This document shows, in pieces, positions 19,536-63,577 of a DNA stretch of 64,000 nucleotides. Each line of letters opens with the position of its first letter. Positions within the stretch are counted from its first letter, which is position 1. The DNA lies in assembly GCA_944372115.1 (NCBI GenBank), contig CALVYH010000002.1:34898-98897 (forward strand), in the 5' to 3' direction. The translations under genes were made by a program, and so were the position numbers. The notes beneath the pieces were generated by a model that ran no database searches, was not told where the DNA came from, and saw only the letters and a program-made list of their open reading frames with translations. Source of the DNA: an uncultured Bacilli bacterium. GTDB taxonomy: Bacteria; Bacillota_I; Bacilli_A; RFN20; CAG-826.

Positions 19536-20084
19536 ATGAAAAGAGTAAAAAAATTAGTCATAGTATCAATATTATCAATGTTTTTATTTTCTTCGTGTAA
19601 AGATAAAAATTCTTTTATCTATAATAATTTAGAAAAAGAAGCATCACATTTTATATTTAGAAGTTTTTCAATAGATGAATTTTCAATGATGGAACATTTA
19701 GAGTCTTACTTTTATGAAATTCCTTTAACAGAAGAGCGTTATAAAATAATTGATTATGAAACTTATAATGAAAGGTTAAATAGTTTTAATATAAAAGCTC
19801 ATAAAAATGATATATCTTTAGGAAAATTAAATAAGGAAGATTTAATTAATAAAACAATTATCGAAGTGCCTTTACTTTCAGGAAGTGGATCTTATAAAGT
19901 GTATTTTTTAGATATTTCTAATAATAAAGAAAATATTAAGTTAAATTTTCTTTTAGATAATTATGTATGTGATACGTGTGGCGTTACAGCAGATGCAGTA
20001 ACTCATCTTTATTATGTTTATTTAGATAACTCAATTTATGATTTAAATAAACCGATTAAAATAAATTATGATAGTTTAATGTAG
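19536..20084 (+). CDS. hypothetical lipoprotein
   Basis: Signal peptide with lipobox LFSSC. Confidence 0.5.
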   Translation: MKRVKKLVIVSILSMFLFSSCKDKNSFIYNNLEKEASHFIFRSFSIDEFSMMEHLESYFYEIPLTEERYKIIDYETYNERLNSFNIKAHKNDISLGKLNKEDLINKTIIEVPLLSGSGSYKVYFLDISNNKENIKLNFLLDNYVCDTCGVTADAVTHLYYVYLDNSIYDLNKPIKINYDSLM

Positions 20085-26605: not shown

Positions 26606-29600
26606 ATGGGAAAAGTAGAAGAAAATAATAAAAAGAATGGGAAAGTAAGTTTTAGGCAATGGATTTTATTTATATTAATTGGATTTGCCGGTCAACTTGC
26701 TTGGAATGTTGAAAATATGTATTTAAACAAATTTATTTTCTCATTCGGAGATCAAAATTACTCTTTAATGATTACTTTAACTGTGGCAATAAGTGCGATA
26801 GTTGCTTGCTTAACAACTATTTTTATGGGTGCTTTATCTGATAAAATTGGAAAAAGAAAAATATTTATTGCTTTAGGTTATCTACTTTGGGGAATTTCTA
26901 CTGCTTCATTTGGGTTTATTAGTGTAGAAAATGTTTCTATTTTATTTCCTAGTTTAAGTGCTGCAAGTGTTGCTGCCATATTAGTCATTATTATGGATGC
27001 AATTATGACTTTTATTGGAAGCAGCGCTAACGATGCGGCTTTTAATGCTTATGTAACGGAAAATGTTGATGATAAAAATAGAGGAAAGGTTGAAGGAGTT
27101 TTATCAATTCTTCCTCTTATTGCCATGCTTGTTATATTTATTGGCTTAGATACTTTAACAACTTCAGGACATTGGGATTTATTCTTTTTTATTATCGGCG
27201 GGTTTGCTTTTATAGTTGGTATTATTTCTTTTTTCCTTATTCCAAAAGAGGAAAAAAGAAATAATATTGGTAAAAGGACTTATATAAAAACTATTGCTGA
27301 AGGATTTAGAATTAAAACTATTAAAAATAATAAAAGTTTATATATAATTTTAATTGCTTATTTAATATTTGGAATTGCTACACAAATATTTTTCCCATAT
27401 TTAATGATTTATTTCCAATACACTTTAAATTTCCAAGGATTAGATTTTATGATTTGTTTAGGTGTAGTTTTAATTCTTGGTTCGCTTTTAACTGTTTTAG
27501 CCGGAATAATGATGGATAAATTTGGAAAAAATAAACTTATTATTCCAATTATGATATTAGCTATTTTAGGTTTATTTTTAGTTTATTTTGTTAAACCTGG
27601 AGAATTAATTTTTGCAATTATTGCTGGAACTATCATGCTTTTTGGTTATATTTGTGGTGGATCAGTGTTAAATGCGATTGTAAGAGAAAAAATACCTGAA
27701 GGAGATGAAGGTATATTTATGGGAGTAAGAATGATATTTGTTGTTATGCTTCCTATGGTAAGTGGACCTTATATTGCTCAAGTTTTAGTTGATAATTTTG
27801 CGAATGGAACTTATATAGGTGATTATGGAACTCCTCAAAATTTACCTCCTGCTTTAATTTGGCTAGTTTCAGCAATTGTTTTAATATTTATTTTCGTTCC
27901 AATTTATTTTTATTTAAAAAAAGAAAAAAATGATAAAAAAAAGAAAGAAAAAGAAAACTTTGGTAAAGTTAATAATGGAATTTCTTATAAAATTGAAAAA
28001 GAAAATCATGATGAAAATTTTATTCCTTTAAAAGAACATCCAAATCCATATTTTAAGAGAAATAATTATCTTTCAATTAATGGATATTGGGATTTATATA
28101 TAGGAAAAGAAGAAAGTTTCCCTTCTTTTTATAATAAAAAAATACTCGTTCCTTATGCGATTGAATCACCTTTAAGTGAAGTTGAAGTAAATGTTTTACC
28201 TGATGATGTTATTTTTTATCATAAAGAAATAATTTTACCTTTAGAGATGTATGGCGAACATCTAATTATTAATTTTTTAGGCGTTGATCAAACTTGCGAA
28301 CTTTATGTTAATAAGATGCTTGTAATGAAAAATGAATCTGGATACAATTCTTTTTCTTATGATATTCGCCCTTTAATTAAAGAAGATAGGAAATTGGAAA
28401 TTATTTTAAAAGTAAAAGATGTTAGTGACACTTCTTACTTTTCACGTGGAAAACAATCATTAAATAGAGGTAATATTTGGTATACAACTACAAGTGGAAT
28501 TTATAAACCTGTTTATTTAGAAAGCGTATCTTCTAAGGAATATATTAAATCTTTTAATATAATTCCTGATGCAAATGAAGAAACGATTAAAGGTATTATC
28601 GAAACTAATAGTGGATATACTTGTTTATTAAAGGTTGGAGAAGAAGAATTTTTAGTCGAGCCAAATAAACCATTTTCATTAAAAATAAAAAATATTCATT
28701 ATTGGAATTTAGATGACCCATATTTATATGGTGTAAAAATTAAATATTATGACGATGAAATTTCTTCCGTTTTAGGTTTTAGAAAAATTGAAATTAAAAA
28801 GAAAAATAATAAAAACAGGTTATTTTTAAATAATAAAGAAATAATTTTAAAAGGTTTATTAGATCAAGGCTATTATTTTAAAGGAAATTTAACTCCTGAA
28901 AAGTATGAAGACTATTACGAAGAAATTAAAAAAATTAAATCCTTAGGCTTTAATACTTTAAGAAAACATATAAAACTTGAAATCCCACTCTTTTATTATT
29001 ATTGCGATAAATTAGGCGTTTTTACTATTCAAGATATCGTTAATGGCGGAAGAAGTTATGATAAATGGACTATTCAATCACCATTAATTTTAAATACTCA
29101 TAAAAAAGATATCGATAAAGATTATAAAAAATTTAAAAGAGAAGATGAAAAAGGAAGAGAAGAATATTTAACTGATTTAAACTTTACTCTTTCTTTATTA
29201 TCATCCTCCCCTTCAAATATCATAATTTGTTTATTTAATGAAGGATGGGGTCAATTTGATTCAACATTTTATTATAAATACACGAAATATATCGTTAAAA
29301 ATAATAAACTTATCGATACTGCTAGTGGATGGTATGATAATGAAAATAGTGATTTTTATAGTAAGCACGTATATTTTTTACCTATTAAAAATATAAAAAT
29401 GAAAGGTAAAAGAGCCTATTTATTAAGTGAATTTGGTGGTTATTCTCTTTATTTAAAAGATCATTTTTATGGCAAATCACCTTATGGATATAAAAAATTT
29501 AAAGGTAGTAAGTCTTTAACTAAAGCTTATGAAAGATTAATGATTTCAGTAATTAAATCATTAAAAAAAGATATGGTTGGTTTTATTTATACTCAATTAA

Positions 29601-29713
29601 GCGATGTTGAAGATGAAGTGAATGGTTTATTTACTTTTGACAGAAAAATATTAAAAATAGATGAAAACACAATTAAAAATATAAATAAAAAAGTAGATGA
29701 ATTAACAAAATAA
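26606..29713 (+). CDS. fusion protein: N-terminal 12-TM GPH/MFS-type sugar symporter (about aa 1-440) joined by a K-rich linker to a complete GH2 (beta-glucuronidase-like) glycosidase domain (about aa 470-1035)
   Basis: MFS motif A GALSDKIGKRK. GH2 sugar-binding domain HLIINFLGVDQTCELYVNKMLVMKNESGYNSF. TIM-barrel acid/base CLFNEGWGQ (NE motif) and nucleophile LLSEFGG. C-terminal NGLFTFDRK segment as in UidA. Confidence 0.75.
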   Translation: MGKVEENNKKNGKVSFRQWILFILIGFAGQLAWNVENMYLNKFIFSFGDQNYSLMITLTVAISAIVACLTTIFMGALSDKIGKRKIFIALGYLLWGISTASFGFISVENVSILFPSLSAASVAAILVIIMDAIMTFIGSSANDAAFNAYVTENVDDKNRGKVEGVLSILPLIAMLVIFIGLDTLTTSGHWDLFFFIIGGFAFIVGIISFFLIPKEEKRNNIGKRTYIKTIAEGFRIKTIKNNKSLYIILIAYLIFGIATQIFFPYLMIYFQYTLNFQGLDFMICLGVVLILGSLLTVLAGIMMDKFGKNKLIIPIMILAILGLFLVYFVKPGELIFAIIAGTIMLFGYICGGSVLNAIVREKIPEGDEGIFMGVRMIFVVMLPMVSGPYIAQVLVDNFANGTYIGDYGTPQNLPPALIWLVSAIVLIFIFVPIYFYLKKEKNDKKKKEKENFGKVNNGISYKIEKENHDENFIPLKEHPNPYFKRNNYLSINGYWDLYIGKEESFPSFYNKKILVPYAIESPLSEVEVNVLPDDVIFYHKEIILPLEMYGEHLIINFLGVDQTCELYVNKMLVMKNESGYNSFSYDIRPLIKEDRKLEIILKVKDVSDTSYFSRGKQSLNRGNIWYTTTSGIYKPVYLESVSSKEYIKSFNIIPDANEETIKGIIETNSGYTCLLKVGEEEFLVEPNKPFSLKIKNIHYWNLDDPYLYGVKIKYYDDEISSVLGFRKIEIKKKNNKNRLFLNNKEIILKGLLDQGYYFKGNLTPEKYEDYYEEIKKIKSLGFNTLRKHIKLEIPLFYYYCDKLGVFTIQDIVNGGRSYDKWTIQSPLILNTHKKDIDKDYKKFKREDEKGREEYLTDLNFTLSLLSSSPSNIIICLFNEGWGQFDSTFYYKYTKYIVKNNKLIDTASGWYDNENSDFYSKHVYFLPIKNIKMKGKRAYLLSEFGGYSLYLKDHFYGKSPYGYKKFKGSKSLTKAYERLMISVIKSLKKDMVGFIYTQLSDVEDEVNGLFTFDRKILKIDENTIKNINKKVDELTK

Positions 29714-32862: not shown

Positions 32863-33417
32863 ATGAATTTTATCGGGACAAATATTATATCTTTAGAGAA
32901 CATAGTTTTAACTAAGTTTAATGAAAACGATTATTTGGACTTATTTGAATACGCTTCTAATAAGGAAGTTGTTAAATTTTTGACGTGGAATCAATATAAA
33001 AGTATTGATGAAGCAAAAGATTATTTAAAAAATATAGCTTGTAAATACGATAATAAAACTTTTAGATGGGCGATTCGCTATAAAGAAAATAATAAACTTA
33101 TCGGTTGTATTGATGTTGTTTCTTTAGATTTAAATAAAGAAGAAGTTGAACTTGGTTATGTATTAAATCCTAAATATCAAAATAAAGGCTTAATGAGTGA
33201 AGCTTTAAAAGGAGTAACCAAATATTTATTTAATGAAGTATTAATAAACAAAATAAAAATAAGATGCAATGTCGATAACATTGCATCTTATAAAGTTATG
33301 AAAAATGCTTCTTTTAAGGATATGAATATAATAAGAGTAGAAAATATAAAAGGAAAAGATGTTTTTGTTAGATATACTTATTTAACTAAATACGATTATT
33401 TTTATAAATTTAGATAA
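32863..33417 (+). CDS. GNAT-family N-acetyltransferase (RimL/RimJ-like)
   Basis: GNAT core VELGYVLNPKYQNKGLMSEAL. Confidence 0.7.
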   Translation: MNFIGTNIISLENIVLTKFNENDYLDLFEYASNKEVVKFLTWNQYKSIDEAKDYLKNIACKYDNKTFRWAIRYKENNKLIGCIDVVSLDLNKEEVELGYVLNPKYQNKGLMSEALKGVTKYLFNEVLINKIKIRCNVDNIASYKVMKNASFKDMNIIRVENIKGKDVFVRYTYLTKYDYFYKFR

Positions 33418-33432
33418 CAATATATCATTAAA

Positions 33433-34752
33433 CTAGATTTTATTAATTACACCTGAAAAAATAATGTTTTCATTACTATCTTTAATATAAAATCCGAATG
33501 TTTTATCAATTATAAAATCTTTATAGATATCTTTATATTCTATTGGACGATCACCAGTTGCTCCATCCGCTCCTATAGCTGTAACTGCAGCTCCTTCAAT
33601 TCCTTTTTTATTTACCTTTAATTTAGTTATATGAATAATAGTAGATATAAATACATTACTTTCTTTTAAGAAATCATCTTTTATAATTGATGAGAAATCT
33701 GCTAAAACTTCGTTAGTTGAATTAACAAGATTAAATCTATTTTTCATAAAATCAAGTAAATCTTCATTAAATTCACCTTCAAATTCAGGGAAAATTGTTC
33801 TAGTATGATATTTAATTTTATTTATTTCATCATAAGGATTATAACTTTCAATATTTTCAATCTCTTTAATTGTTGATTCATTAAATACTTCATCAATTGA
33901 ATATCCATCTTTTGGTTTAATAAATTGGAGGGTGTAATTTCTTCTTGTTTTAGTATAGAAAGTTTCATATTTTTCATTTTCATAAACTTGGCCTACATTA
34001 TAATAACCTTCTAAAAATTTCTTTTTACTTATTTCACCATTTTTATTTTTAAATTCAATTTCTTTGTTAAAATAAGGCAAATCATCACCGAGTTCATTCC
34101 AAATATCTTTATAATAAAGAATGTTTAATAAAACAAGCATTGTGTTTTCGCCAAAATTAAACTCGTTATTAATTAGTCCTTTAGTTTTATCTTTAACATA
34201 GTTTTGAATAGATTTATTCATTTCTTTATTTTGGTTAAAAAAATCTCCATAGTAAGAAGTTGTAAAGAAATTATCACTTAATTCTTTCAATCCTTCATCT
34301 TTAAATTCACATTTTGTATCAAGCCATAAAGAGTTAGTAAAATTAGTTACACCAAAATGATTTTCATTATTTAATAGAGAATAAAATGTAGGAATATTAT
34401 CAATTAATTCATCATATGAAGAAATATTTAAAACTTTTAATATTTCTTCTCTTGATGAATTATTTGTTGAAGCAGCTGCCATAGCTAAACCCATATACAT
34501 TGAAGCAGGGGATACAACTAAATTATCATAAGTATTTTTATAATCTTGATAAATATAAGAAGAAAATTTTGAAGCAAATGACAAAGTTGATTCTTCAAAA
34601 GTTTGATATGATTCACTATAAATATAATCGCCATCTAATTTAACTTTATCTTTGCTTTCATAAATTAAAGTTGCGACATTACTATTCATACAAGAAGTTA
34701 AAGAAAAAGGAATAATCGCAAAAGAAAATAAAAATTTAACTATATTTTTCAT
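33433..34752 (-). CDS. serpin-family protease inhibitor lipoprotein
   Basis: Signal peptide with lipobox LTSC. Serpin N-terminal helix motif NLVVSPASMYMGLAMAAASTNNSSREEIL. Hinge and reactive-centre-loop region EGAAVTAIGADGATGDRP. C-terminal F..D.PF...I-type motif FIIDKTFGFYIKDSNENIIFSGVI. Confidence 0.75.
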   Translation of the reverse strand: MKNIVKFLFSFAIIPFSLTSCMNSNVATLIYESKDKVKLDGDYIYSESYQTFEESTLSFASKFSSYIYQDYKNTYDNLVVSPASMYMGLAMAAASTNNSSREEILKVLNISSYDELIDNIPTFYSLLNNENHFGVTNFTNSLWLDTKCEFKDEGLKELSDNFFTTSYYGDFFNQNKEMNKSIQNYVKDKTKGLINNEFNFGENTMLVLLNILYYKDIWNELGDDLPYFNKEIEFKNKNGEISKKKFLEGYYNVGQVYENEKYETFYTKTRRNYTLQFIKPKDGYSIDEVFNESTIKEIENIESYNPYDEINKIKYHTRTIFPEFEGEFNEDLLDFMKNRFNLVNSTNEVLADFSSIIKDDFLKESNVFISTIIHITKLKVNKKGIEGAAVTAIGADGATGDRPIEYKDIYKDFIIDKTFGFYIKDSNENIIFSGVINKI

Positions 34753-34847
34753 ACTTTCACCTCGTTTATTTTATTAATAAGAGATATACATATTATTTTT
34801 GGTGCAATTAAATTATAAAAAAAGAGATTTATTTTTAAAATAAATCT

Positions 34848-36791
34848 CTAGATATTAACATTTTTGTTTATGATTTGATCTTGGAATTGATCAATTTGTT
34901 CACCAATATTGAGTTCTTTAAATTGGTTTGTATAAAGCTTATGATAATATCCTTTTTTCTCCATCAGACTCTTATGATTTCCGTCTTCAACTACAACACC
35001 ATCTTTCATAACTAATATTCTTGAAGCATCAACAATAGTAGATAAACGGTGAGCAATAATTAACGATGTTCTTCCAACAAGCATCTTATTAATAGCACCT
35101 TGAATATCGTGCTCAGTTTCAGTATCAATAGAAGAAGTTGCTTCATCTAAGATTAAAATTTTTGGATTTCTAACGATTGCTCTAGCAAAAGAAATAAGTT
35201 GTTTTTGTCCTTGAGATAATTCATTTCCGCCATCTTTAAGATAAGTATTATATCCATCTTTAAGTGACATAATGAAATCATGAATATCGAGTTCTTTACA
35301 TACTTTTATAATTTCTTCATCAGTTGCATCAAGTTTTCCATAACGAATATTATCGTTGATTGTTCCTTTAAAGATAAAAGGAGTTTGTTGAACGAATCCA
35401 ATGTTACTTCTTAACCAACCAACACTTCTTTCTTTATAATCAACGCCGTCAATCAAGATTTTTCCTTTTGTAGGTTCATAGAATCTACAAAGTAGATTAA
35501 CGGTTGTAGATTTTCCGCTTCCTGTTTCGCCAACAATTGCTAACGAAGTACCTTTTTCGATATGTAAATTTAAATCGTGTAAAACTTCAATTTCTGGGTT
35601 ATAAGAAAAAGAAACATGGTCAAATTGGATATCACCTTCTAAAGGTTCAAAATTTTCGGTTTTGTTATTAAAAATATCACCATATTTTTTAATAACTGCA
35701 GGAGTATCAACCAATGTTGGTTTTGTATCAATTAACATGAATAATTTTTCAACACTTGCTTGAGTTCCCATTAAATCAGCAAATATTTCAGCAAATTGTC
35801 TAATTGGGTTATAAATGTGAGATACAAAGTTGATAAATAAAACGAGCATAGCTGCATTAATAATAATGATGTGGTTATCATTAAAAATTGGAACAACTAA
35901 AATTATGATTGCAGTTGTAATATAAGAAAGAAAATCGACACAAGGCCAGAAGAATCCACTAGTTCTTTGAGTTTTTAATCTCTTTTTTCTAACATCATCC
36001 GTAATTTCTTCGCATTCTTCTTTAATTGTCTCTTCAATCGCCATTGTTTTGATTGTTTTATTTCCATTAATTGATTCGGCAAGCCAACCAACAAAATAAG
36101 AATAAGCGCTACGAGCAATACGAGAGAATTTTAAGATTAATTTTTCAAATACCATAACAACAACAAAAATTAATGGAGTTGTTGCAAGAATAATTAATGA
36201 TAATTGCCATGATTGGCTAAACATAGTAATTAAAGTAAAAATAAGTGAAAAAGAAATTTGGAAAATTCTTAAAACAGAATAAGATAAAACTTCACCAATA
36301 CTAGCGGCATCGTTATTTAAACGGGCAATAAGCCAACCTGAAGGAGTTTTATCAAAATATGAGAATGATAATTCTTGAATTCTTTTAAAAGCATCTCTTC
36401 TAAGTTGAGTCATAATTTCCATTTCAATGTAATTCATTGAAAAGAAAAGTCCAAACATAGCAAATGATCTTACTACAACAAGAACAATTGCTAAAATTAA
36501 GTAATTTTTAAAAGATAAAATAAATGGAATTCCTAAAATATTAAAATTTAATAAAACATTCCAAATATTAACGTCTCCCCCAAAAAGAGGTCCGTTATCT
36601 TCAAAAGCAGCAATTAAAGCTGCGTTAGCAACAGGAACAAAGGAAGAATCATAGAATGCTTGAAAAAGCATACATAAAAGTAAAACTATAACTATTGGCC
36701 ATAGTTTTTTAATATACTTAACTGTTTTAATCCAAACAGAGAAATTCAACTTATCAGTTACAACACTTTCTTCAACGTATGCGCTTGCCAT
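34848..36791 (-). CDS. ABC exporter fused permease/ATPase (type I exporter, half of a heterodimer)
   Basis: Six-TM N-terminal domain. Walker A GETGSGKST. Signature LSQGQKQLISFARA. Confidence 0.8.
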   Translation of the reverse strand: MASAYVEESVVTDKLNFSVWIKTVKYIKKLWPIVIVLLLCMLFQAFYDSSFVPVANAALIAAFEDNGPLFGGDVNIWNVLLNFNILGIPFILSFKNYLILAIVLVVVRSFAMFGLFFSMNYIEMEIMTQLRRDAFKRIQELSFSYFDKTPSGWLIARLNNDAASIGEVLSYSVLRIFQISFSLIFTLITMFSQSWQLSLIILATTPLIFVVVMVFEKLILKFSRIARSAYSYFVGWLAESINGNKTIKTMAIEETIKEECEEITDDVRKKRLKTQRTSGFFWPCVDFLSYITTAIIILVVPIFNDNHIIIINAAMLVLFINFVSHIYNPIRQFAEIFADLMGTQASVEKLFMLIDTKPTLVDTPAVIKKYGDIFNNKTENFEPLEGDIQFDHVSFSYNPEIEVLHDLNLHIEKGTSLAIVGETGSGKSTTVNLLCRFYEPTKGKILIDGVDYKERSVGWLRSNIGFVQQTPFIFKGTINDNIRYGKLDATDEEIIKVCKELDIHDFIMSLKDGYNTYLKDGGNELSQGQKQLISFARAIVRNPKILILDEATSSIDTETEHDIQGAINKMLVGRTSLIIAHRLSTIVDASRILVMKDGVVVEDGNHKSLMEKKGYYHKLYTNQFKELNIGEQIDQFQDQIINKNVNI

Positions 36792-36794
36792 AAA

Positions 36795-38603
36795 TTACTC
36801 CATTTTTGTTTGAATTTTGTAAATTCTTGAATATAATCCCTCTTTATTTACTAAATCATCATGTTTACCCATTGCTTCAATTTTTCCATTATTTAATACA
36901 ATAATTAAATCAGCATCTTTTGCGGTAGCAATTCTATGAGTAATGATAATAGTTGTTGATTTAGTATCACGATTTTTTAAAGCTTGTCTAATGTTATAGT
37001 CGGTTTCGGTATCAACCGCCGATAATGAATCATCGAAAATTAAAACTGGTGAATTTAAAATTAAGCTTCTTGCAATTGCAACTCTTTGTTTTTGTCCACC
37101 AGAAAGGGTTGTTCCTCTTTCTCCAACAGGTGTATCATAACCAAATTGGAATTTATTGATTGAGTCGTGAATTTGGGATATTTTTGTGGCCTTTTTAATA
37201 TCGTCTTCAGTTACATCTTTTTTTCCGATTGTTAAATTATCTTTAATAGTTTTAGAAAAAAGGAATGGTTCTTGTAAAATTAATGCAATATTTTTTCTAA
37301 GCCATGCTTTTTCGATTTTTTGAATATTCATTCCATCAATATCAATTTCACCACTTTGATAATCGTAAAGTCTATTGAGTAAATAAGCTAAAGTAGATTT
37401 TCCGCTACCTGTTTTGCCCATAATTGCAACAGTTTGACCAGCTTTTACACTAAAAGAAACATCTTTTATAGCATTTCTATCTGGCTCATCAGGGAAAGCA
37501 AATGAAACATGTTTGAATTCAATATCGCCTTTAATTACAGGTTTTTCTCCAGTATAAATATCTTCATTTGGAGAATCTAAAAGAATGTTTATTCTTTCTA
37601 CTGCGGCATATGCTCTAGCAACATTAGAAAGAATAGTGGCTAAGTCTCTAATAGGCCAAACGATTGTATCAGCATAAGTAAAGGCAATAACCATGGTTCC
37701 AACGCTAATTCCAGCCAAATGAAGTGGATCAGCATATCTTTGATAGCATAGATAAAAACCAAAAACAGTTGTTAATAAAATTTGACCGAAAATAAAAATA
37801 TCTGAAGAAGAGAAGAAAAATGCACTCATTTTTCTCCAATGAATAAATTTTTTCTTATAATCATCTATATATGTTTCAAAATTATTGATTTCATAAGCTT
37901 CATTATTAAAAGCTTTAACAACTCTAACTGCAGAAAGATTTTCTTCAACCTTAGCCGTCATTTCACCTTCACTATCATCTGTTGCTCTATATCTTCTTCT
38001 AACTTCTTTAATTAAGAAGAAAGAATAAACAAACATAATAGGCATTAAAGCCATTGTAATTAAGGTTATTTCTACATTTGTAATAAATAAAATAATAACA
38101 GCGATAATTACGATAAAAACTGAATAAAAAATTGAATACATGTGATCAGTTAAAAATCTTCTAAAAACATCTTCATCACGTGTACAAGTTTGTAAAATAT
38201 CGCCGTTTTTCATTCCTTTTACTTGAGAATAAGGAAGTCTTTCTACTTTATAAAATAAAGCGTCTTGAAGTTGTTTGCCCATTTGAGTAGAAGTTTTTGC
38301 TCTATAGACAAATCTAAAAGCAGCAGTTCCACCACTTAAAAGTGCAAAAATTACTAAAATAATAGCAAAAACCCAGAGATTATTTGTTAATAAGTCATAT
38401 CCACCAAATGCATTAAAAAAAGCTTTTTCTAAAAAATCCATTGTTTCAAAACTTTCTTTATTAATCGCATCAATTAATGCTTTTGTTGTATATGTTCCAA
38501 GCATATAAAATAAAAGCGATATAAAAAGTAAGACATAATAGAAGTAATATCTAAATCGTACGCCTTTGAGCATGATATTTTTGGCTTTAGTAATTTTACT
38601 CAT
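36795..38603 (-). CDS. ABC exporter fused permease/ATPase (heterodimer partner)
   Basis: Walker A GKTGSGKST. Signature LSGGQKQRVAIARS. Adjacent and co-oriented with a 4-nt gap. Confidence 0.8.
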   Translation of the reverse strand: MSKITKAKNIMLKGVRFRYYFYYVLLFISLLFYMLGTYTTKALIDAINKESFETMDFLEKAFFNAFGGYDLLTNNLWVFAIILVIFALLSGGTAAFRFVYRAKTSTQMGKQLQDALFYKVERLPYSQVKGMKNGDILQTCTRDEDVFRRFLTDHMYSIFYSVFIVIIAVIILFITNVEITLITMALMPIMFVYSFFLIKEVRRRYRATDDSEGEMTAKVEENLSAVRVVKAFNNEAYEINNFETYIDDYKKKFIHWRKMSAFFFSSSDIFIFGQILLTTVFGFYLCYQRYADPLHLAGISVGTMVIAFTYADTIVWPIRDLATILSNVARAYAAVERINILLDSPNEDIYTGEKPVIKGDIEFKHVSFAFPDEPDRNAIKDVSFSVKAGQTVAIMGKTGSGKSTLAYLLNRLYDYQSGEIDIDGMNIQKIEKAWLRKNIALILQEPFLFSKTIKDNLTIGKKDVTEDDIKKATKISQIHDSINKFQFGYDTPVGERGTTLSGGQKQRVAIARSLILNSPVLIFDDSLSAVDTETDYNIRQALKNRDTKSTTIIITHRIATAKDADLIIVLNNGKIEAMGKHDDLVNKEGLYSRIYKIQTKME

Positions 38604-38666
38604 AGGGTTTATTTTAAACTTATTTTCAATAATTGCAAACGCATTTTTATGGTATACTTTAATGGT

Positions 38667-43648: not shown

Positions 43649-45448
43649 TTAATCAAATAAATCAGGGAATTCACTTTCAAAATAATCTTTTACATCTTCA
43701 TCATAGTAATTAATGTTAGATTGTTCAAGATAATAAAGAAGTGCATTGTTAGTATAAGTTCCACCACTTGCAACAGTATAACCAATATCTCTAGCATAGC
43801 TTTCAACATTAGTTTTTTCTTCACTTGTAGAATCGCTATTTAAAGCGAGTGTATCTAACGAGACTTGATCAACGATTTCAACGATATAATAATCATCTTC
43901 GTTTTGCCATAAAATTGAGTCAACATCACTAGCGTATGTATTATTTTTTAAGAATACAGGGCCACCTTGAGTGAATTGTTTAACATAATATCCATCAACA
44001 ACATAAGATGTATCTGGATCAGTTGCTCTTTCAAATTCTGTAGCAAGACCATAAGAGAAGAGGTTAGTAATCATATTGCTTCCGCCAAGATCAAATGATG
44101 AAGATGTACCCCATTCATTTGTAACATAGGAAGAAGTTTCTAAATTTTCGATTTGAAGTGCTAAACCTTCTTCTGGAGTATATGGAATTCCATCGATAGA
44201 TGTAAATGAAGTATAAATTGTTGAATCATTAGTAGCTGGATTATTTGTTAATTCGCTATAGTTTTTAATAATATCACCATAAAGTGAGCCATTAAAATAT
44301 GGATAATCTTCGCCAGTTTTTCCATCAATATAAGAATTAAATCCGGAATTGATTTTTGTTGATTCTTCTCCATAAACGCTTGTTGCTAAAGTTTTAGCAG
44401 CTTCATTTTCACTTAATGATAATTTTTCGTGATTACCTTCCCAAGCATCAATAAGTGTTGAGAAATCAACATTTCTTTCGGTTTCATTTCTTAAGATTGT
44501 ATTGATATAACTTCTCATTAATGGTTGAGCCATTTTCGAAGAAGTATCGCTAATTTTAATGAAATTAACTTTTCTAGCTTGAGTTCTTCCAATTGATTGA
44601 TATTGTTTTTCAAAAATATAAGATTCTGTTAATAAATTTGAAAGGATATCAGGAATCATTGAAAGATTAATATAATCTACATAATGATATAAATGTAATA
44701 ATTGAGTATCTCCTTCAATAACCATTTTATAGTTATCTTCTGGATTATATTCACGTGTTACAAGTTTACCAGTTGTAAATCCTGCATCAACAAATTGTTT
44801 GTTTTCAGGTGCGTTTTCTGGATCTTTATATGTTGGTTCAGTATATAAAAGTTCTGGATCAACGCTTTTTCCGCTATTATCATAAACTGTGTAAAGTTTT
44901 TCATAGATTGATTTAGCGTATAATGATTCATAGAAACGATTATTGTTCATATAAGTAACAACAACAGCTTCATCATATAAAGTGGTAACAATTTCTTTTT
45001 GGACAAGGTCAATATAAGCTTCAATTCTAGCTTTATATTCACTAACATTTGAAGAAGATGGTTCTTCTTCAAATTCAACTGAAGTAGATGTTGAAACCCA
45101 GTTCCAATAGAATTTATGTTCTTTAACAAAGTTCATAACCGAAGTATCATCACCTAAATTTAATCCTTCAATATAAACTAAGCCATTATTATCAACTTTA
45201 TAATCTCCAATATAAGCTTTAGCGATAGCTTCAGTTAACATCTCTTTAACGCTTGTTTTATAGCTATCACCATTTTTAATGGAGTTAAAAATTTGATTAA
45301 TTTCGTTATTTTCAACGTTTACTGCATTTCCAGCTTGATCAACAACGATTGGATCTTCTGGATTTTTTAAATTAGCACTAACTTTTGAACAACCAGTAAC
45401 TAATAAAGCTGCAGATAAAAGTAATAATGTAGTCTTTGCTTTTTTCAT
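43649..45448 (-). CDS. large acidic lipoprotein with a SurA/PrsA-like N-terminal chaperone domain
   Basis: Signal peptide with lipobox LVTGC. D/E/Y/N-rich. N-terminal segment SVKEMLTEAIAKAYIGDY like the neighbouring lipoprotein. Confidence 0.5.
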   Translation of the reverse strand: MKKAKTTLLLLSAALLVTGCSKVSANLKNPEDPIVVDQAGNAVNVENNEINQIFNSIKNGDSYKTSVKEMLTEAIAKAYIGDYKVDNNGLVYIEGLNLGDDTSVMNFVKEHKFYWNWVSTSTSVEFEEEPSSSNVSEYKARIEAYIDLVQKEIVTTLYDEAVVVTYMNNNRFYESLYAKSIYEKLYTVYDNSGKSVDPELLYTEPTYKDPENAPENKQFVDAGFTTGKLVTREYNPEDNYKMVIEGDTQLLHLYHYVDYINLSMIPDILSNLLTESYIFEKQYQSIGRTQARKVNFIKISDTSSKMAQPLMRSYINTILRNETERNVDFSTLIDAWEGNHEKLSLSENEAAKTLATSVYGEESTKINSGFNSYIDGKTGEDYPYFNGSLYGDIIKNYSELTNNPATNDSTIYTSFTSIDGIPYTPEEGLALQIENLETSSYVTNEWGTSSSFDLGGSNMITNLFSYGLATEFERATDPDTSYVVDGYYVKQFTQGGPVFLKNNTYASDVDSILWQNEDDYYIVEIVDQVSLDTLALNSDSTSEEKTNVESYARDIGYTVASGGTYTNNALLYYLEQSNINYYDEDVKDYFESEFPDLFD

Positions 45449-45463
45449 AAAACTTTATTCCTC

Positions 45464-47437
45464 CTAGTTGCTTCCTTCACTACCGCTTCCTGGATTTGTA
45501 TTTAAAGAAGTTGAGTAGTAGCAGAGTTTTCCTTCACCATAATAATCCATATCACCGAAGTGAATAGCACATGTTTCAGGAATTAATCCGATTTGTCTAT
45601 TTCTTTCTTGATCCATTAATGTAGTGCTATATGAATTCCAAGAATCAATTAAATTTTGATCGCTTGTTTGTTGGACACTTAACATTTTTTGTGTAATGTA
45701 TTGGTCAACTTTTGCTTGAATTGCATCATCTTTAGCTTTGAAATTACCTTCAGTAACCCATTCGAATAATTGATATTCTTTTTGAGTTCCGGTATATGTT
45801 TCATATTTTTCACCAATACCAGTAACTCCGCTATCTGAATTACCATAGATTCTTTCGTTATATCCTTCAACAGTTGTTTGAATAGAATTTACATATGTTG
45901 GTAATGGTTTTCCATTTTCATCTGTAGGGAATAAGTCGTTATAGTAATAATTACCATTAGCATCTTGACCATTTTGTTCAAGAGGATTAACTGGAGCATA
46001 ATATTCATTTAATTTAACTTCAGCAGTTGCTTGATTTTCTAATGGTGATTTTTCAATGACTACAAAGTGAATGCCTGCGTTTCCTGTTTCACTTCTTGAA
46101 ACAACGATTGGGTTTCCTTTTTCATCACATAAAACGGGATAATCTAAACCATTAATTTTTTGGAAGTGAGCAGCTTCGCTTGTTCCTTCTTCAAAGTATA
46201 AATCACTGCCAATAGCATAATCGCCATTTTCGTCTAAGTCTGATTTGACCATTACACCAGTATCTGTTAATGCGTATTCATGAGTTGGATCGCTTGAATC
46301 AACTTTTTGGTTAACGATAAAGCAGATGTTGTGTGAATTGAAATATTTATTGAAAATAATATTTCTTGGATAGTAAGAAGCTTTACCTTCGTTGACAGTT
46401 AATTCTTGACCAGTAACTGGGTCTTTATATGAATCTACATCTTTATATTCGTTGAGTTTAACAACAGCTTCATAAGGAATATATGTTGGACCGACAGTTT
46501 TTAATTCTTCTTCAACATCACTTGGCATTAAGAATTTTTCTGTTAATGAATCAAAGTCAGTATTTCCTTCTCTTATATCTTCATTATATAAAGCATCAAA
46601 TGTATATAAACCAAGTTTGAATTCGTTAATAAATGAAGTATCTAAGTCCATCAAGTGTTCACCATAGTTAGTAGCTGAAGAACTATCATCAGTTAATCTT
46701 TTTGCAATGTCAGCATAAGTATTTGTTGAAGTATCTGATTTAACTAATGCTTCAAAAAGATTGTAAAGTTGTTCAGCATCATCACTTGAAATTTCTCCAG
46801 TTGAGTAATTGGCTGCATCAGCATCAACTTGGATAAGAATATCTCTGACATGATATGGTAATTTAGTTTTAATATAACCATTTTCGCCATAAACCATGTT
46901 AAATTCATTAATTTCGTCTTGGTCAGCTGTATCTTCGTCTGGATTCCATTGGTTAAAAGTATCGTAGAATTCATCGCTGACAATATCTTTCATCGCGGTG
47001 ACTTCACATTGTAAATAATATTGGTGTTCTCTTTCACTTTCACTCATATCACCAACTATATTTAAAGTATCGGTTAAATAGTCTTCCCAAGAAGTTCCGG
47101 CAGTATCTGCAGCGTCTTTAGCTTCATCAACAGCACGATTAGCGTCAGCTTGAGCATCACTTAATCTATCTTGGAATCTACCATTTGTGAATACTTCTCT
47201 AAGGGCAACCTCATAAATAGCATTGTAATAAGCTTCAGCAGCAGAAGAACCATTGTTTGTTAAATAACGATTTAAAATATCTTGAGCTGTGATTTCTTCT
47301 GTAACGGAATTACCGCTTGCAGTTTCATAGGTAAAGTCGATGACGAAATCTTCTTTTGCGGAGATTCCACATCCACTTAATGCTATTGTGGAAAAGGCTG
47401 ATAAGGCTAAAATCATTGATTTAGTACTTTTTTTCAT
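45464..47437 (-). CDS. PrsA/SurA-like foldase lipoprotein with a parvulin (PpiC)-like domain
   Basis: Lipobox LSGC. Parvulin-like block HVRDILIQVD...YADIAKRLTDDSSSATNYGEHLMDLDTSFINEFKLGLYTF. Confidence 0.5.
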   Translation of the reverse strand: MKKSTKSMILALSAFSTIALSGCGISAKEDFVIDFTYETASGNSVTEEITAQDILNRYLTNNGSSAAEAYYNAIYEVALREVFTNGRFQDRLSDAQADANRAVDEAKDAADTAGTSWEDYLTDTLNIVGDMSESEREHQYYLQCEVTAMKDIVSDEFYDTFNQWNPDEDTADQDEINEFNMVYGENGYIKTKLPYHVRDILIQVDADAANYSTGEISSDDAEQLYNLFEALVKSDTSTNTYADIAKRLTDDSSSATNYGEHLMDLDTSFINEFKLGLYTFDALYNEDIREGNTDFDSLTEKFLMPSDVEEELKTVGPTYIPYEAVVKLNEYKDVDSYKDPVTGQELTVNEGKASYYPRNIIFNKYFNSHNICFIVNQKVDSSDPTHEYALTDTGVMVKSDLDENGDYAIGSDLYFEEGTSEAAHFQKINGLDYPVLCDEKGNPIVVSRSETGNAGIHFVVIEKSPLENQATAEVKLNEYYAPVNPLEQNGQDANGNYYYNDLFPTDENGKPLPTYVNSIQTTVEGYNERIYGNSDSGVTGIGEKYETYTGTQKEYQLFEWVTEGNFKAKDDAIQAKVDQYITQKMLSVQQTSDQNLIDSWNSYSTTLMDQERNRQIGLIPETCAIHFGDMDYYGEGKLCYYSTSLNTNPGSGSEGSN

Positions 47438-56535: not shown

Positions 56536-56538
56536 TAA

Positions 56539-56707
56539 TTGCTTCAGGGTGTTGTGAAATTCAAAACTGGTGGTATACCCCACGAGCTAATTTATTAGCA
56601 TGAACTAGTGAAATTCTAGTGGCAACAGTAAAGTCTGGATGAAAGAAAGCATTTATATTATTTTTAAATCAACTTTTTAAAATAGCCCTTGAAGTGAAAG
56701 GGTTATT
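56539..56707 (+). ncRNA. FMN riboswitch (RFN element) with a terminator expression platform
   Basis: Matches conserved RFN blocks: AGGGTG..GTGAAATTC..ACTGGTGGTA..CCCACGAGC...AGTGAAATTC..GGCAACAGTAAAGTCTGGATGAAAGAAAGCA. P1 pairing TGCTTC/GAAAGCA. Downstream hairpin TAGCCCTT/AAGGGTTA plus T7 sequesters the AAAGGG RBS. Confidence 0.85.
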
Positions 56708-56712
56708 TTTTT

Positions 56713-57360
56713 ATGAAAATTAAAAAATCTTTACTTCTAATTGCTCGTGTTGCTATTTTTGGAGCTTTAGCCATAATTCTTTATATGGTGCCCGGTTTAC
56801 AATTTCCTATTTTTCCAGGTTTAACGTTTTTAAAAATACATTTTGATGAAATCCCGGTTTTATTTGCTTCCCTTGCTTATGGGCCTTTAACTGGGAGTTT
56901 AATTATTTTTTTAAAGGGAATATTTAAACTTATTCAAGATATTGGTGAAACAGGAGGAATCGGAGTAATAGCAGATATAATTTATGGTCTTGCTTTTATA
57001 CTCCCTGCTGCTTTTATTTATAAATATCATAAAGGTTTTAAAATGGGTTTAGTTGCAATATTTGTTGGAATGCTAGTTAATTTAATATTTAGTGCATTTA
57101 TTGGATATTATCTTATTTATCCTTTATATGGTTTTTATTTTAATCCAAGTGCTAGTAATTATAATGAAGCGATGGAAACAGTCTTTACACTTTTTAAAGC
57201 AGCCGATTCTTCTTTAACTTCTTGGAAAGATCCAAAAATATTATTTGAATTTCTTCTTCCATTTAACTTAATTAAAAACGCCGTAATTGTGGTATTTACT
57301 ATTTTGGTTTATAAGCCATTATCTTTACTTGTTAAAAAAGAAGAAAATAAAGAAAAATAA
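56713..57360 (+). CDS. ribU: ECF transporter S component, probably the riboflavin transporter RibU
   Basis: 215-aa, 6-TM ECF S-component-like protein directly downstream of the FMN riboswitch. Confidence 0.7.
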   Translation: MKIKKSLLLIARVAIFGALAIILYMVPGLQFPIFPGLTFLKIHFDEIPVLFASLAYGPLTGSLIIFLKGIFKLIQDIGETGGIGVIADIIYGLAFILPAAFIYKYHKGFKMGLVAIFVGMLVNLIFSAFIGYYLIYPLYGFYFNPSASNYNEAMETVFTLFKAADSSLTSWKDPKILFEFLLPFNLIKNAVIVVFTILVYKPLSLLVKKEENKEK

Positions 57361-61648: not shown

Positions 61649-62301
61649 TTAAAGAAGAAAAAGTTAAAAGAATTAGACAATATTTTAACGAAATTCTTCC
61701 ATCAGCAAATTGCGAATTAAATTATTCAGCAGAGTATGAATTATTAATTGCGGTCGTTTTATCTGCGCAAACAACCGATAAAAAAGTAAATGAGGTTACA
61801 AAAACATTATTTAAAAAATATCCAACTATCGATGATTATAATAAGGCTTCTGTAAGTGAAATTGAAAACGATATTAAAGTTATTGGCTTATATAAAGCAA
61901 AAGCTTTGGCTATAAAAGATATAGCTTCTAAACTTAAAAATAATTTTAACTATAAAGTACCAGATAATAAAAAAGATTTAATGACCATGCGAGGAGTCGG
62001 AAATAAAGTTGCTAATGTTGTATTGGTTGAAATATTTAATAAAGAAGAATTTCCAGTTGATACGCATGTTTTCCGAGTAGCAAAAAGACTCGGCTTAGCA
62101 AATAAAAACGATTCGATTTTAGAGGTAGAAAAAAAGTTAAGAAAAGTTTTTAAAAAAGAAGAATATAAACTTTTACATCATCAATTTATTCATTTTGGTA
62201 GATATTATTGTAAAGCGATAAATCCAAGTTGTGAAACTTGCAAAATGAAAGACTTTTGTTTGGATGTTCATCTTAAAGCTTCGTCAACAAAAACTAAATA
62301 G
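61645..62301 (+). CDS. nth: endonuclease III
   Basis: HhH motif LIAVVLSAQTTDKKVN and 4Fe-4S Cys cluster CKAINPSCETCKMKDFC. Confidence 0.9.
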   Translation: MIKEEKVKRIRQYFNEILPSANCELNYSAEYELLIAVVLSAQTTDKKVNEVTKTLFKKYPTIDDYNKASVSEIENDIKVIGLYKAKALAIKDIASKLKNNFNYKVPDNKKDLMTMRGVGNKVANVVLVEIFNKEEFPVDTHVFRVAKRLGLANKNDSILEVEKKLRKVFKKEEYKLLHHQFIHFGRYYCKAINPSCETCKMKDFCLDVHLKASSTKTK

Positions 62302-62825
62302 TTTAAAATTGGAGAAATAGTTAAAGGGATTTCTTTACCATTATTAATAAATTCTTCTAGTGGAATTGAATTTCTTTTATTTTCTTTAGAAAAGTTTTTT
62401 AAATCCTTTGCAAAATAAATAAAGATTTTATTTAAAGATGTAAAATAAACAATTAAAAAAGAAATTCCTCCCATTTCATGGACTCTTAAAATGTGCTCAA
62501 TTTGATTTTTTTGAATATTTTTTAAGGAAAAAGATGTTTTTGATTTTGTTTCTTTTGCTTCAAAATCAATGTATTTTCCTTTATAAATACCATTATAATC
62601 GGTAGTTGATGGTCTTTCAAAAAAAGCCTCAGTTATCGTATTTTCTTTATTTGTTTTTACAACATGTATAGGTGTAGGTTTTTTATATATCAAAGCTTTA
62701 TCAATAAAACGATAAAATTTATTAGAATCATTTATCATTTTTTCTAATGATAAACCTCTATTTTTATATGAAATTATTGATTTATTTTTTTCGTCATTAG
62801 TTATATTAAAAGGGTAATTGATCAT
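62268..62825 (-). CDS. recU: Holliday junction resolvase RecU
   Basis: YKNRGLSLEKMINDSNKFY, KPTPIHVV and DYNGIYKGKYIDFEAKET blocks match RecU. Confidence 0.8.
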   Translation of the reverse strand: MINYPFNITNDEKNKSIISYKNRGLSLEKMINDSNKFYRFIDKALIYKKPTPIHVVKTNKENTITEAFFERPSTTDYNGIYKGKYIDFEAKETKSKTSFSLKNIQKNQIEHILRVHEMGGISFLIVYFTSLNKIFIYFAKDLKNFSKENKRNSIPLEEFINNGKEIPLTISPILNYLVFVDEALR

Positions 62826-63577
62826 TTTAAATCTTCCTCGACATAAGTAATAAAATCTTTATAAGTTACTTTTTGTTCGCTTTCTAATTTTTTTAATATT
62901 TTTCGAAAAGGATTAGGTAATGCAGGCGATCTTCTTAAGACATTTATGTATTGTTCTTTTAAAATAGATTGTTTTGTCAAAAAGGAATCGTATAAATGCA
63001 TTAAATTTAATGAATCGGTTAATGGATCATGAATATTTGTTTCAATATTTGTATGAAAAATTTTTAAAGCATCAATTAAAGATAGTGAAGTATTTCGTTC
63101 ACTTTTTACATACCTTGAAAAAGTTTTAGAAAAATCAACGCTATTTTCGTAAAAATATCTAATAAATGGGTCATCGTTTATACCGCTATTTAAAGCGCTA
63201 TTATGCATTAAGTGTGTATCAAAATTTCCATAATGGAAAAATTTAGCCGGGGTTTTTCCAACGAAGTTTTTAAATCTTTCAATCGCTTCAATAAATGTTA
63301 AACCTTCATTTTCTAATAATTCGTTAGTAATTCCTGTTAAATTTGTTATAAAATCTCCGACAATTTCGTCAATTTTTATATAGCATTTAAAAGTAGAAAT
63401 AACTTTCTTAATAAAATTTTTATTATCTAGAATTGCTTTAACAGCACCAATTGCGATAATTTCTTGACTATATTGAGAGCCTTCAAAATCTATAAAAATA
63501 ATAGTCTTGTAGTTATTTAATATTCTATTAATTTCTTTCATAAAAAACCTATTAATAGTATACCGATAAATATTCAT
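62822..63577 (-). CDS. DEDDh 3'-5' exonuclease (DnaQ/RNase T superfamily)
   Basis: Exo I FIDFEGSQ, Exo II FHYGNFDTHLM, Exo III HDPLTDSLNL. Confidence 0.6.
   Translation of the reverse strand: MNIYRYTINRFFMKEINRILNNYKTIIFIDFEGSQYSQEIIAIGAVKAILDNKNFIKKVISTFKCYIKIDEIVGDFITNLTGITNELLENEGLTFIEAIERFKNFVGKTPAKFFHYGNFDTHLMHNSALNSGINDDPFIRYFYENSVDFSKTFSRYVKSERNTSLSLIDALKIFHTNIETNIHDPLTDSLNLMHLYDSFLTKQSILKEQYINVLRRSPALPNPFRKILKKLESEQKVTYKDFITYVEEDLK

Follow-up and report, generated by a model that had tools for sequence, protein, structure and literature searches.

A window of 64,000 nucleotides (64 kb) from contig CALVYH010000002.1 of an uncultured Bacilli bacterium was analyzed here. Among its 51 open reading frames (ORFs) is a minus-strand gene whose product is read as an inhibitory-type serpin made as a lipoprotein precursor, and the gene is taken to be independent of the pair of ABC exporter genes lying directly upstream; the probability of this reading is put at about 0.72. 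The protein belongs to a large, uncharacterised and not fundamentally new group of lipoprotein serpins. Its bait residue is predicted to be small, and the gene appears to have entered the locus on its own. Coordinates of all features are collected in Table 1.

The serpin, its anchor and its reactive-centre loop

The 439-residue product matches the Pfam Serpin profile PF00079 from position 4 to 368 of 370, with E=9.8e-35 and 120.9 bits (cut-off 27). An earlier note on this DNA, made from the sequence alone, had called it a full-length serpin; profile, fold and hinge all bear this out, and the E-value falls far below the threshold that the note had set for keeping the assignment. The strings quoted there are found at residues 79-105 (VVSPASM...LAMAAASTNNSSREEIL), 386-403 (EGAAVTAIGADGATGDRP) and 413-419 (F-I-I-D-K-T-F). 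A phmmer search of solved structures matched 128 serpins, and the family profile reached conserpin, miropin and tengpin with E-values of 1e-42 to 1e-37; an NCBIfam search with the protein returned zero matches. The AlphaFold2 model, built on a 75-sequence family alignment (pLDDT 90.6, pTM 0.88), together with Foldseek, places the protein in the serpin fold, with its three sheets, 8-9 helices and an exposed loop between s5A and s1C. The sole unstructured internal stretch of the model, residues 392-406, corresponds to the reactive-centre loop, with low pLDDT at 393-397. The top 50 PDB matches of the model are all serpins (E 7e-25 to 5e-21, TM-score at most 0.84 on the target). Columns conserved in the family alignment include S84 of the shutter motif S81-P82-x-S84, W218, H374, G384, G387, A388 and A389. 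A contig scan identified two loci from closely related uncultured genomes (L001 and L002) carrying serpins 95% and 91% identical to that of the window. The dN/dS ratio of 0.13-0.17 against these loci shows the signature of purifying selection on the gene.

The N-terminus of the precursor, MKNIVKFLFSFAIIPFSLTSC, contains K2 and K6, the hydrophobic segment FLFSFAIIPFS and then L-T-S-C21. When read against PROSITE PS51257, it has the charged residues (K2/K6), the uncharged stretch (7-16) and the terminal [AGS]-C of a lipobox. The LTSC lipobox reported in the earlier note is therefore present, and its Cys21 is unchanged across the 75 homologues of the family alignment, where it is one of 18 invariant columns; the signal peptide surrounding it varies. 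A word-indexed search yielded 343 homologues, the best 120 of which score 261-920 bits (a few are labelled 'Clostridia bacterium'), and in most of these 120 a lipobox Cys stands at residues 16-28. Likewise, 105 of 129 full-length cluster representatives have a lipobox. A minority of homologues have a longer N-terminal extension and no lipobox.

The size of the subfamily was gauged with phmmer over 1.84 billion cluster representatives, which gave 258 matches at E<=1e-30, 2231 at E<=1e-10 and 9216 at E<=1e-3. The locus thus points to a large subfamily of lipid-anchored serpins comprising at least 258 clusters at 50% identity. Its members occur almost only in metagenomes, most of them with a lipobox, and the host loci of homologues range from 24% to 49% GC. 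The statement that bacterial serpins are sporadic holds at the level of species. The subfamily, however, is large and mostly of the lipoprotein type; for this reason a membrane-tethered bacterial serpin is not unusual. Membrane-anchored prokaryotic serpins are indeed a recognised category (PMC8233489). The top results of a literature search contained no paper linking serpins with Mollicutes-like Bacilli.

Between the anchor Cys and helix A (residues 22-46, approximately 34615-34689 on the minus strand) the family conserves a segment of the form LLxxP...Y, which in the window's serpin reads ATLIYESKD. The model shows a short strand at residues 28-31 of this segment, with block-mean pLDDT of ~75-93 around it. 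In tengpin an N-terminal extension stabilises the native state, and by analogy the post-anchor segment might do the same here.

The hinge reads K382(P17)-K-G384(P15)-I385(P14)-E386-G387-A388-A389-V390(P9)-T391(P8). In phmmer alignments its region, NKKGIEGAAVTA, pairs with VNEEGTEAAAASA and similar sequences of solved serpins, that is, with hinges of the EEGTEAAA type. It has the Gly at P15, the uncharged P14 and the small residues at P12-P9 that characterize inhibitory serpins. The earlier note had proposed examining P15-P9 for residues incompatible with loop insertion; the segment found, G-I-E-G-A-A-V, carries no charge at its inward-facing positions. The whole of P15-P8, G-I-E-G-A-A-V-T, is invariant or nearly so among 119 homologues. 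The reading of the protein as a lipoprotein serpin is well supported, and the hinge and the conserved columns predict it to be of the inhibitory type.

Counting 14 residues from the P15 Gly designates A398 as P1 and T399 as P1' (the A398 codon is at 33559-33561). A gap-free alignment of the family profile, running from the hinge to the alpha1-antitrypsin loop borne by conserpin, sets Met358 opposite family index 14, which is A398. The same alignment sets the alpha1-antitrypsin P3' Pro opposite the conserved Pro of the family and places the family's 7 extra residues on the P' side. In an ungapped phmmer alignment with a tick serpin, the Arg found 14 residues past the P15 Gly of that protein also falls opposite A398. 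The alignment-based prediction of P1 suggested in the earlier note thus yields Ala398. A homologue 51% identical to the window's serpin (P0002) likewise has D-G-A-T, and G397, A398 and G400 are constant within the species cluster. Five of the eight positions at 395-402 are polymorphic in this cluster, as against 71 of 439 overall, a pattern typical of a bait loop. Among the 119 homologues, Gly occupies P2 in 78 and Pro occupies P3' in 78, whereas P1 is taken by Ala, Thr, Ser or Glu, P1' by Ala or Ser, and P2' by Gly or Ala; the residues around the presumptive cleavage site of the family are therefore small (G-A↓A/S-G-P). Because the predicted P1 is a small residue, it suggests elastase- or proteinase-3-like targets, a specificity assigned with low confidence.

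It seems very unlikely that the protein is instead a trypsin-type inhibitor with Arg402 as P1. This assignment draws on a phmmer alignment in which R402 pairs, after a 4-residue gap, with an Arg in the loop of Arabidopsis AtSerpin1, which we take to be the AtSerpin1 P1. When alpha1-antitrypsin and the tick serpin are aligned without gaps, however, R402 falls at P4', and the scissile bond would fall 18 residues past P15 rather than 14, a spacing that inhibitory serpins rarely tolerate given the constraint on loop length. Moreover, among the 16 alleles compared at 95% identity, 11 have Gly or Pro in place of R402 (the 91%-identical L002 keeps Arg), and the family has Pro, Gly or Asp there, none of them basic. 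Arg402 was rejected as P1 on the strength of the allele variation, the family residues and the ungapped alignments.

Taking Ala398 as P1, the mode of action can be pictured as follows. The serpin would be exported by the Sec pathway, Cys21 would be modified with diacylglycerol and the signal peptide would be cleaved, steps needing Lgt and LspA. The mature protein would then be tethered to the cytoplasmic membrane, on its outer face, through ~25-35 linker residues ahead of helix A. Loop 392-406 would serve as bait, and a serine protease cutting at or near Ala398-Thr399 would form an acyl-enzyme; insertion of the hinge (G384-T391) into sheet A would drag the protease along and inactivate it, as in the suicide-substrate mechanism. 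The small P1 and its D-G-A↓T context would favor elastase- or proteinase-3-like enzymes, or microbial proteases preferring small residues, over trypsin-like ones. The likely role would be to shield a reduced-genome, possibly wall-less gut bacterium from exogenous proteases.

Alternatively, the serpin could control a protease that the bacterium, or a close member of its community, secretes or carries on its surface, and not one of the host. A protective role toward the extracellular machinery of their own cell has been proposed for some bacterial serpins, among them the cellulosome serpins of C. thermocellum (bioRxiv 10.1101/2020.04.21.053413), and at one homologous locus (P0017) a serpin gene stands in tandem with a second one beside a C1-family peptidase gene. 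Against this, the 64-kb window contains no protease gene, sister species live without the serpin, so that no tie to a core endogenous protease exists, and the Peptidase_C1_2 and M3 neighbors of homologues belong to typically cytoplasmic families. An endogenous target is accordingly given a small, though appreciable, chance.

Several points weigh against the reading of the protein as a lipidated protease inhibitor. Inhibition, target and lipidation are all inferred. With Ser at -1, the lipobox does not satisfy the stricter Gram-positive pattern G+LPP, and neither lgt nor lspA, nor a candidate gene for a target protease, is among the 51 ORFs of the window. The Lys at P17 (usually Glu) and the Ile at P14 (usually Thr or Ser) are atypical, yet they are the norm in the family; both are uncharged or outward-compatible. 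The loop is rich in Gly and Ala and exceeds that of reference serpins by 2-9 residues on the P' side, for which reason the true scissile bond could lie elsewhere than at A398-T399. In the siropins, cleavage was found at P3-P2 and P6-P5, off the nominal P1 (PMC5127057). Finally, the model shows residues 384-391 as a strand and 392-406 without secondary structure, and many of the serpins that match it best in structure are cleaved or latent forms. The inserted look of the hinge may reflect a modelling bias or hint at a partly inserted resting state, and it was not used as evidence.

The unusual P17 and P14, the lack of an obvious strong P1 in a Gly/Ala-rich loop and the resemblance of the model to relaxed serpin forms would also fit a serpin fold devoid of inhibitory activity, whether a surface binding or carrier protein or a molecule locked in the latent, loop-inserted state. 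Non-inhibitory serpins typically lose the conserved small-residue hinge. Here the P15-P8 hinge, with its small residues, is near-invariant even though the homologues compared number more than 100 and are divergent, a mark of selection for loop insertion, and the polymorphism at 395-402 within the species is as expected of a bait loop. A non-inhibitory protein is therefore judged improbable, and an inhibitor remains the preferred interpretation.

Insertion of the serpin gene beside an ABC exporter operon

The three co-oriented minus-strand ORFs described in the earlier note (ABC1, ABC2 and the serpin) are present, but their proximity is incidental and without functional meaning. In the sister genomes L016, L017 and L018, whose ABC2 proteins are 87%, 84% and 80% identical to that of the window, the gene order is retained (HIT, HD, RecX-like, GT4, LPG synthase, ABC1-ABC2, GNAT, P-type ATPase and, in L016 and L018, where the contig extends, also MFS/GH2 and YjeF) and there is no serpin: the convergent GNAT gene directly abuts ABC2. 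A tblastn search revealed no serpin remnant in these three genomes (best E 0.64), and a more distant locus (L019, 68% identity) has no serpin either. Conversely, the homologues P0002 (51% identical), P0017 (43%), P0004, P0018 and P0119 lie in five different contexts, none with an adjacent ABC pair. The check on orthologues proposed in the earlier note thus went against a conserved neighborhood. Since sister genomes are without the gene and homologues occur in other contexts, the serpin gene is a recent single-gene insertion into the convergent ABC-GNAT intergenic site, in this species-level lineage only.

Third-position GC content (GC3) is 0.109 in the serpin gene and 0.15-0.17 in its neighbors. 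A recent transfer from a donor of foreign composition was also weighed. Given that GC3 is only modestly lower and that identity to the nearest homologue beyond the species is no more than 51%, a donor cannot be named. At the P0017 locus (L010, 4641-7281), gatCAB and a Peptidase_C1_2 (aminopeptidase C-like) gene are followed immediately by two tandem serpin genes. None of the other homologue contexts examined has a protease neighbor, and the tandem indicates that the family can duplicate locally.

Preceded by a Shine-Dalgarno sequence and a promoter-like site, and bounded by hairpin terminators at both ends, the serpin gene is predicted to form a unit of its own. The promoter-like site is weak evidence, such matches being no commoner here than in shuffled AT-rich sequence. 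The hairpin that the earlier note had placed between the ABC genes and the serpin does exist; its coordinates (34812-34842) were shifted by ~7 nt, the actual structure spanning 34823-34849. It folds with -10.2 kcal/mol (z=-5.3; 0 of 200 shuffles fold as well), begins inside the ABC2 stop codon and is followed by U6 at 34817-34822. Its stem is conserved in L001 and L002, which differ by loop changes only. The consensus terminator scan missed this hairpin because it has only 2 G-C pairs. A second candidate terminator follows the serpin stop at a distance of 142 nt and falls within the coding sequence (CDS; 32863-33417, plus strand) of the convergent GNAT gene, where it is made by synonymous codon choices in codons 133-143. 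It is found in the serpin-bearing window, L001 and L002 and is absent from the serpin-less L017, whose peptide at this site is nearly identical (IRCNIDNLASY versus IRCNVDNIASY). It looks like a terminator that evolved inside the convergent gene after the serpin insertion.

Coupling of the serpin to the ABC genes, through a shared operon or through an exporter that secretes the serpin or a partner molecule, is scarcely credible in light of these data; the earlier note had itself called co-regulation uncertain. The three genes do lie on one strand, with 95 nt between ABC2 and the serpin, and the arrangement is found in all same-species contigs and in L001 and L002. Beyond this species-level cluster, however, the adjacency is not kept: in the sister genomes the ABC operon and its flanks are retained but the serpin is missing, and five homologues from other lineages are without an ABC neighbor. 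In silico, hairpin, U-tract, promoter-like site and Shine-Dalgarno sequence all intervene, which argues against a single transcription unit. In addition, the serpin has its own Sec/lipoprotein signal, and the exporters are of the drug/lipid type IV fold, without a peptidase or secretion accessory domain. Thus, a misleading lead is removed, the adjoining exporter being unrelated to an independently acquired serpin.

As for the exporter itself, each half consists of ABC_membrane plus ABC_tran (Pfam), and the catalytic Glu of the ABC1 Walker B motif is changed to Asp. The best bacterial solved relatives are TM288 (E=1e-95, 1e-79), the ABC exporter chain 7ocy_B and Sav1866, and ABC2 also matches TmrAB-type chains; no NCBIfam equivalog cut-off was reached by the ABC genes. 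The pair has the features of a heterodimeric exporter with one degenerate ATP site, as predicted from its motifs. The LmrCD/BmrCD-like character claimed for it earlier finds support in these asymmetric Walker B and signature motifs, which are TM287-288-like. It shares with TM287/288, EfrCD, LmrCD and BmrCD the adjacency of the two half-transporters, the Walker B Asp-Asp in one and the deviant signature in the other. The spacing between the two genes is 3 bases (36792-36794, from the ABC1 stop to the ABC2 ATG) and not the 4 nt reported earlier. Against L001 and L002, dN/dS is 0.014-0.025 for ABC2 and 0.009-0.020 for ABC1; the rate of evolution is 7-10 times lower in the ABC genes than in the serpin. 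The pair is read as a conserved housekeeping heterodimeric exporter with no part in serpin biology.

Table 1. Features of the serpin locus (positions in the window; evidence as used for each assignment)
Feature	Position	Strand	Evidence
Serpin precursor CDS, 439 aa	33433-34752	(-)	ORF, Pfam PF00079, AlphaFold2, Foldseek, dN/dS
Predicted lipoprotein signal peptide (residues 1-20) and lipobox L-T-S-C; Cys21 codon 34690-34692	34690-34752	(-)	Sequence and alignment
Hinge and predicted reactive-centre loop, K382(P17)-Y406	33535-33609	(-)	Hinge alignment to solved serpins, family statistics, profile alignment, model
Shine-Dalgarno GAGGTG, 5 nt upstream of serpin ATG	34758-34763	(-)	Read from sequence; conserved in L001, L002
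Promoter-like site for serpin, TTTAAA-16 nt-TATAAT, 10/12 matches	34812-34839	(-)	Consensus scan
Intrinsic-terminator-like hairpin (12-bp stem, UAA loop) and U6, directly after ABC2 stop	34817-34849	(-)	Folding, conservation
Candidate serpin terminator, 15-bp perfect hairpin and U-rich tail	33249-33291	(-)	Terminator scan; -18.2 kcal/mol, z=-6.6
ABC half-transporter 2 (ABC2), 647 aa, consensus-site ILDEAT, deviant signature LSQGQ	34848-36791	(-)	Pfam, PDB matches
ABC half-transporter 1 (ABC1), 602 aa, degenerate Walker B IFDDS, signature LSGGQ	36795-38603	(-)	Pfam, PDB matches
Promoter-like site for ABC operon, TTGCAA-16 nt-TAAAAT, in 45-nt divergent intergenic region	38611-38639	(-)	Consensus scan

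The host organism and other features of the window

The window is an origin-proximal piece of chromosome, carrying genes for GidA, GidB, ParA, ParB, DnaB, ribosomal protein L9, pyruvate:ferredoxin oxidoreductase and the SUF system. Its GC content is 28%, and TGA is a stop codon, used by 7 genes. MnmG is 72% identical to that of Ca. Onthovivens, the most specific among the few taxon-named homologues. Ca. Onthovivens is a genus of Bacilli reported from pig and human gut metagenomes. It presumably falls in RFN20/CAG-826; the two terms occur together in PMC8035907. Within RFN20, the families CAG-826 and CAG-288 are predicted to be without peptidoglycan, and CAG-449 and CAG-631 to be walled (PMC10868615). 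By this taxonomic route a wall-less host, which the earlier note had called probable, is plausible. The 51 ORFs of the window include no wall-synthesis genes.

In many Bacilli recU is paired with ponA. The recU gene of the window (62268-62825, minus strand) has no adjacent gene for a class-A penicillin-binding protein, an arrangement weakly consistent with reduced wall synthesis.

Reassignment of CGG to Trp has been reported for Ca. Onthovivens (PMC13092985). In the window CGG occurs once in the 19,520 codons of the 51 ORFs, at codon 5 of 62822-63577 (minus strand), and never in the serpin gene; AGG occurs 17 times and AGA 460 times. Translation table 11 is adequate because CGG is this rare and absent from the serpin, and because TGA is a stop.

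Lipoprotein signals begin 5 of the 51 ORFs: 5217-6536 (IATSC), 19536-20084 (FSSC), 33433-34752 (LTSC, the serpin), 43649-45448 (VTGC) and 45464-47437 (LSGC). In the four other than the serpin, the residue at -1 is Ser in two (IATSC, FSSC) and Gly in two. This density of lipoproteins is high and reminiscent of Mollicutes-like organisms. The last two ORFs, both on the minus strand, form a tandem of large lipobox proteins (599 aa, ...LLVTGC, and 657 aa, ...ALSGC) that have no Pfam match at E<=0.01. In L016-L018 a similar-sized ORF, also without a Pfam match, stands at the corresponding position beside the HIT gene at the edge of the locus, which suggests conservation; the two products may be surface proteins.

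Two further features were recorded. The ORF at 26606-29713 (plus strand, 1035 aa) fuses an MFS domain (54-388) to the N-terminal sugar-binding domain of Glyco_hydro_2 (534-638), an unusual transporter-glycosidase architecture conserved in L016 and L018. An FMN riboswitch (56536-56655, plus strand; Rfam RF00050, 91.2 bits) lies directly upstream of an ECF-transporter S-component gene (56713-57360), which presumably encodes a RibU-type riboflavin importer.

Significance and comparison with known serpins

Taken as a whole, the locus provides a clear-cut case in which one lineage, that of a reduced gut bacterium, has gained a surface protease inhibitor. With sister species that differ solely in the serpin gene, it also offers a clean natural experiment, in which comparison of the sisters could reveal the contribution that a surface serpin makes in a gut symbiont of reduced genome. 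A wider proposal is possible, and we hold it only tentatively. Under it, the proteins would make up an uncharacterised Bacillota clade of membrane-anchored serpins, marked by the G-I-E-G-A-A-V-T hinge, P17 Lys, a G-A↓A/S-G-P bait, the P' extension and the post-anchor LLxxP. They would have been gained by single-gene insertion in reduced, probably wall-less gut Bacilli, as a surface shield against host proteases of the elastase or proteinase-3 type; alternatively, the clade would target a protease class not yet known to be inhibited by serpins. Gut bacterial serpins (the siropins and the B. longum serpin) are explored as anti-inflammatory agents, an interest that stems from their inhibition of neutrophil elastase and proteinase 3.

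Among the serpins studied elsewhere, tengpin of Thermoanaerobacter tengcongensis (PDB 2PEE, 2PEF) resembles the window's protein in being a Bacillota serpin with an N-terminal extension ahead of helix A, and it is among the best matches (Foldseek E~1e-24, profile E=3.5e-37). It differs in its thermophilic source, and identity is only ~20%.

Siropins 1 and 2 of Eubacterium siraeum and the serpin of Bifidobacterium longum, compared here by description, come likewise from gut commensals and have small-residue hinges, and they belong to the same specificity class as predicted from a P1 Ala. The gut siropins are inhibitors of human neutrophil elastase and proteinase 3, with cleavage after Val or Ala, and the paper describing them, unlike the present case, does not mention a lipoprotein or signal peptide (PMC5127057).

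Miropin of Tannerella forsythia (PDB 5NCS, 5NCT, 5NCU, 5NCW), experimentally a surface-exposed lipoprotein serpin (bioRxiv 10.1101/2025.09.05.674453), is comparable in setting: its source is likewise a host-associated anaerobe, and protection from the proteases of host and neighbors is its proposed role. The family profile matches it with E=1.1e-39, a relation at the superfamily level only. Miropin comes from a diderm member of the Bacteroidota and is anchored in the outer membrane, whereas the serpin of the window comes from a monoderm or wall-less member of the Bacilli. Miropin also offers several loop bonds (VKT motif) and has a broad range, while the loop described here is Gly/Ala-rich and the protein carries a family-specific N-terminal segment.

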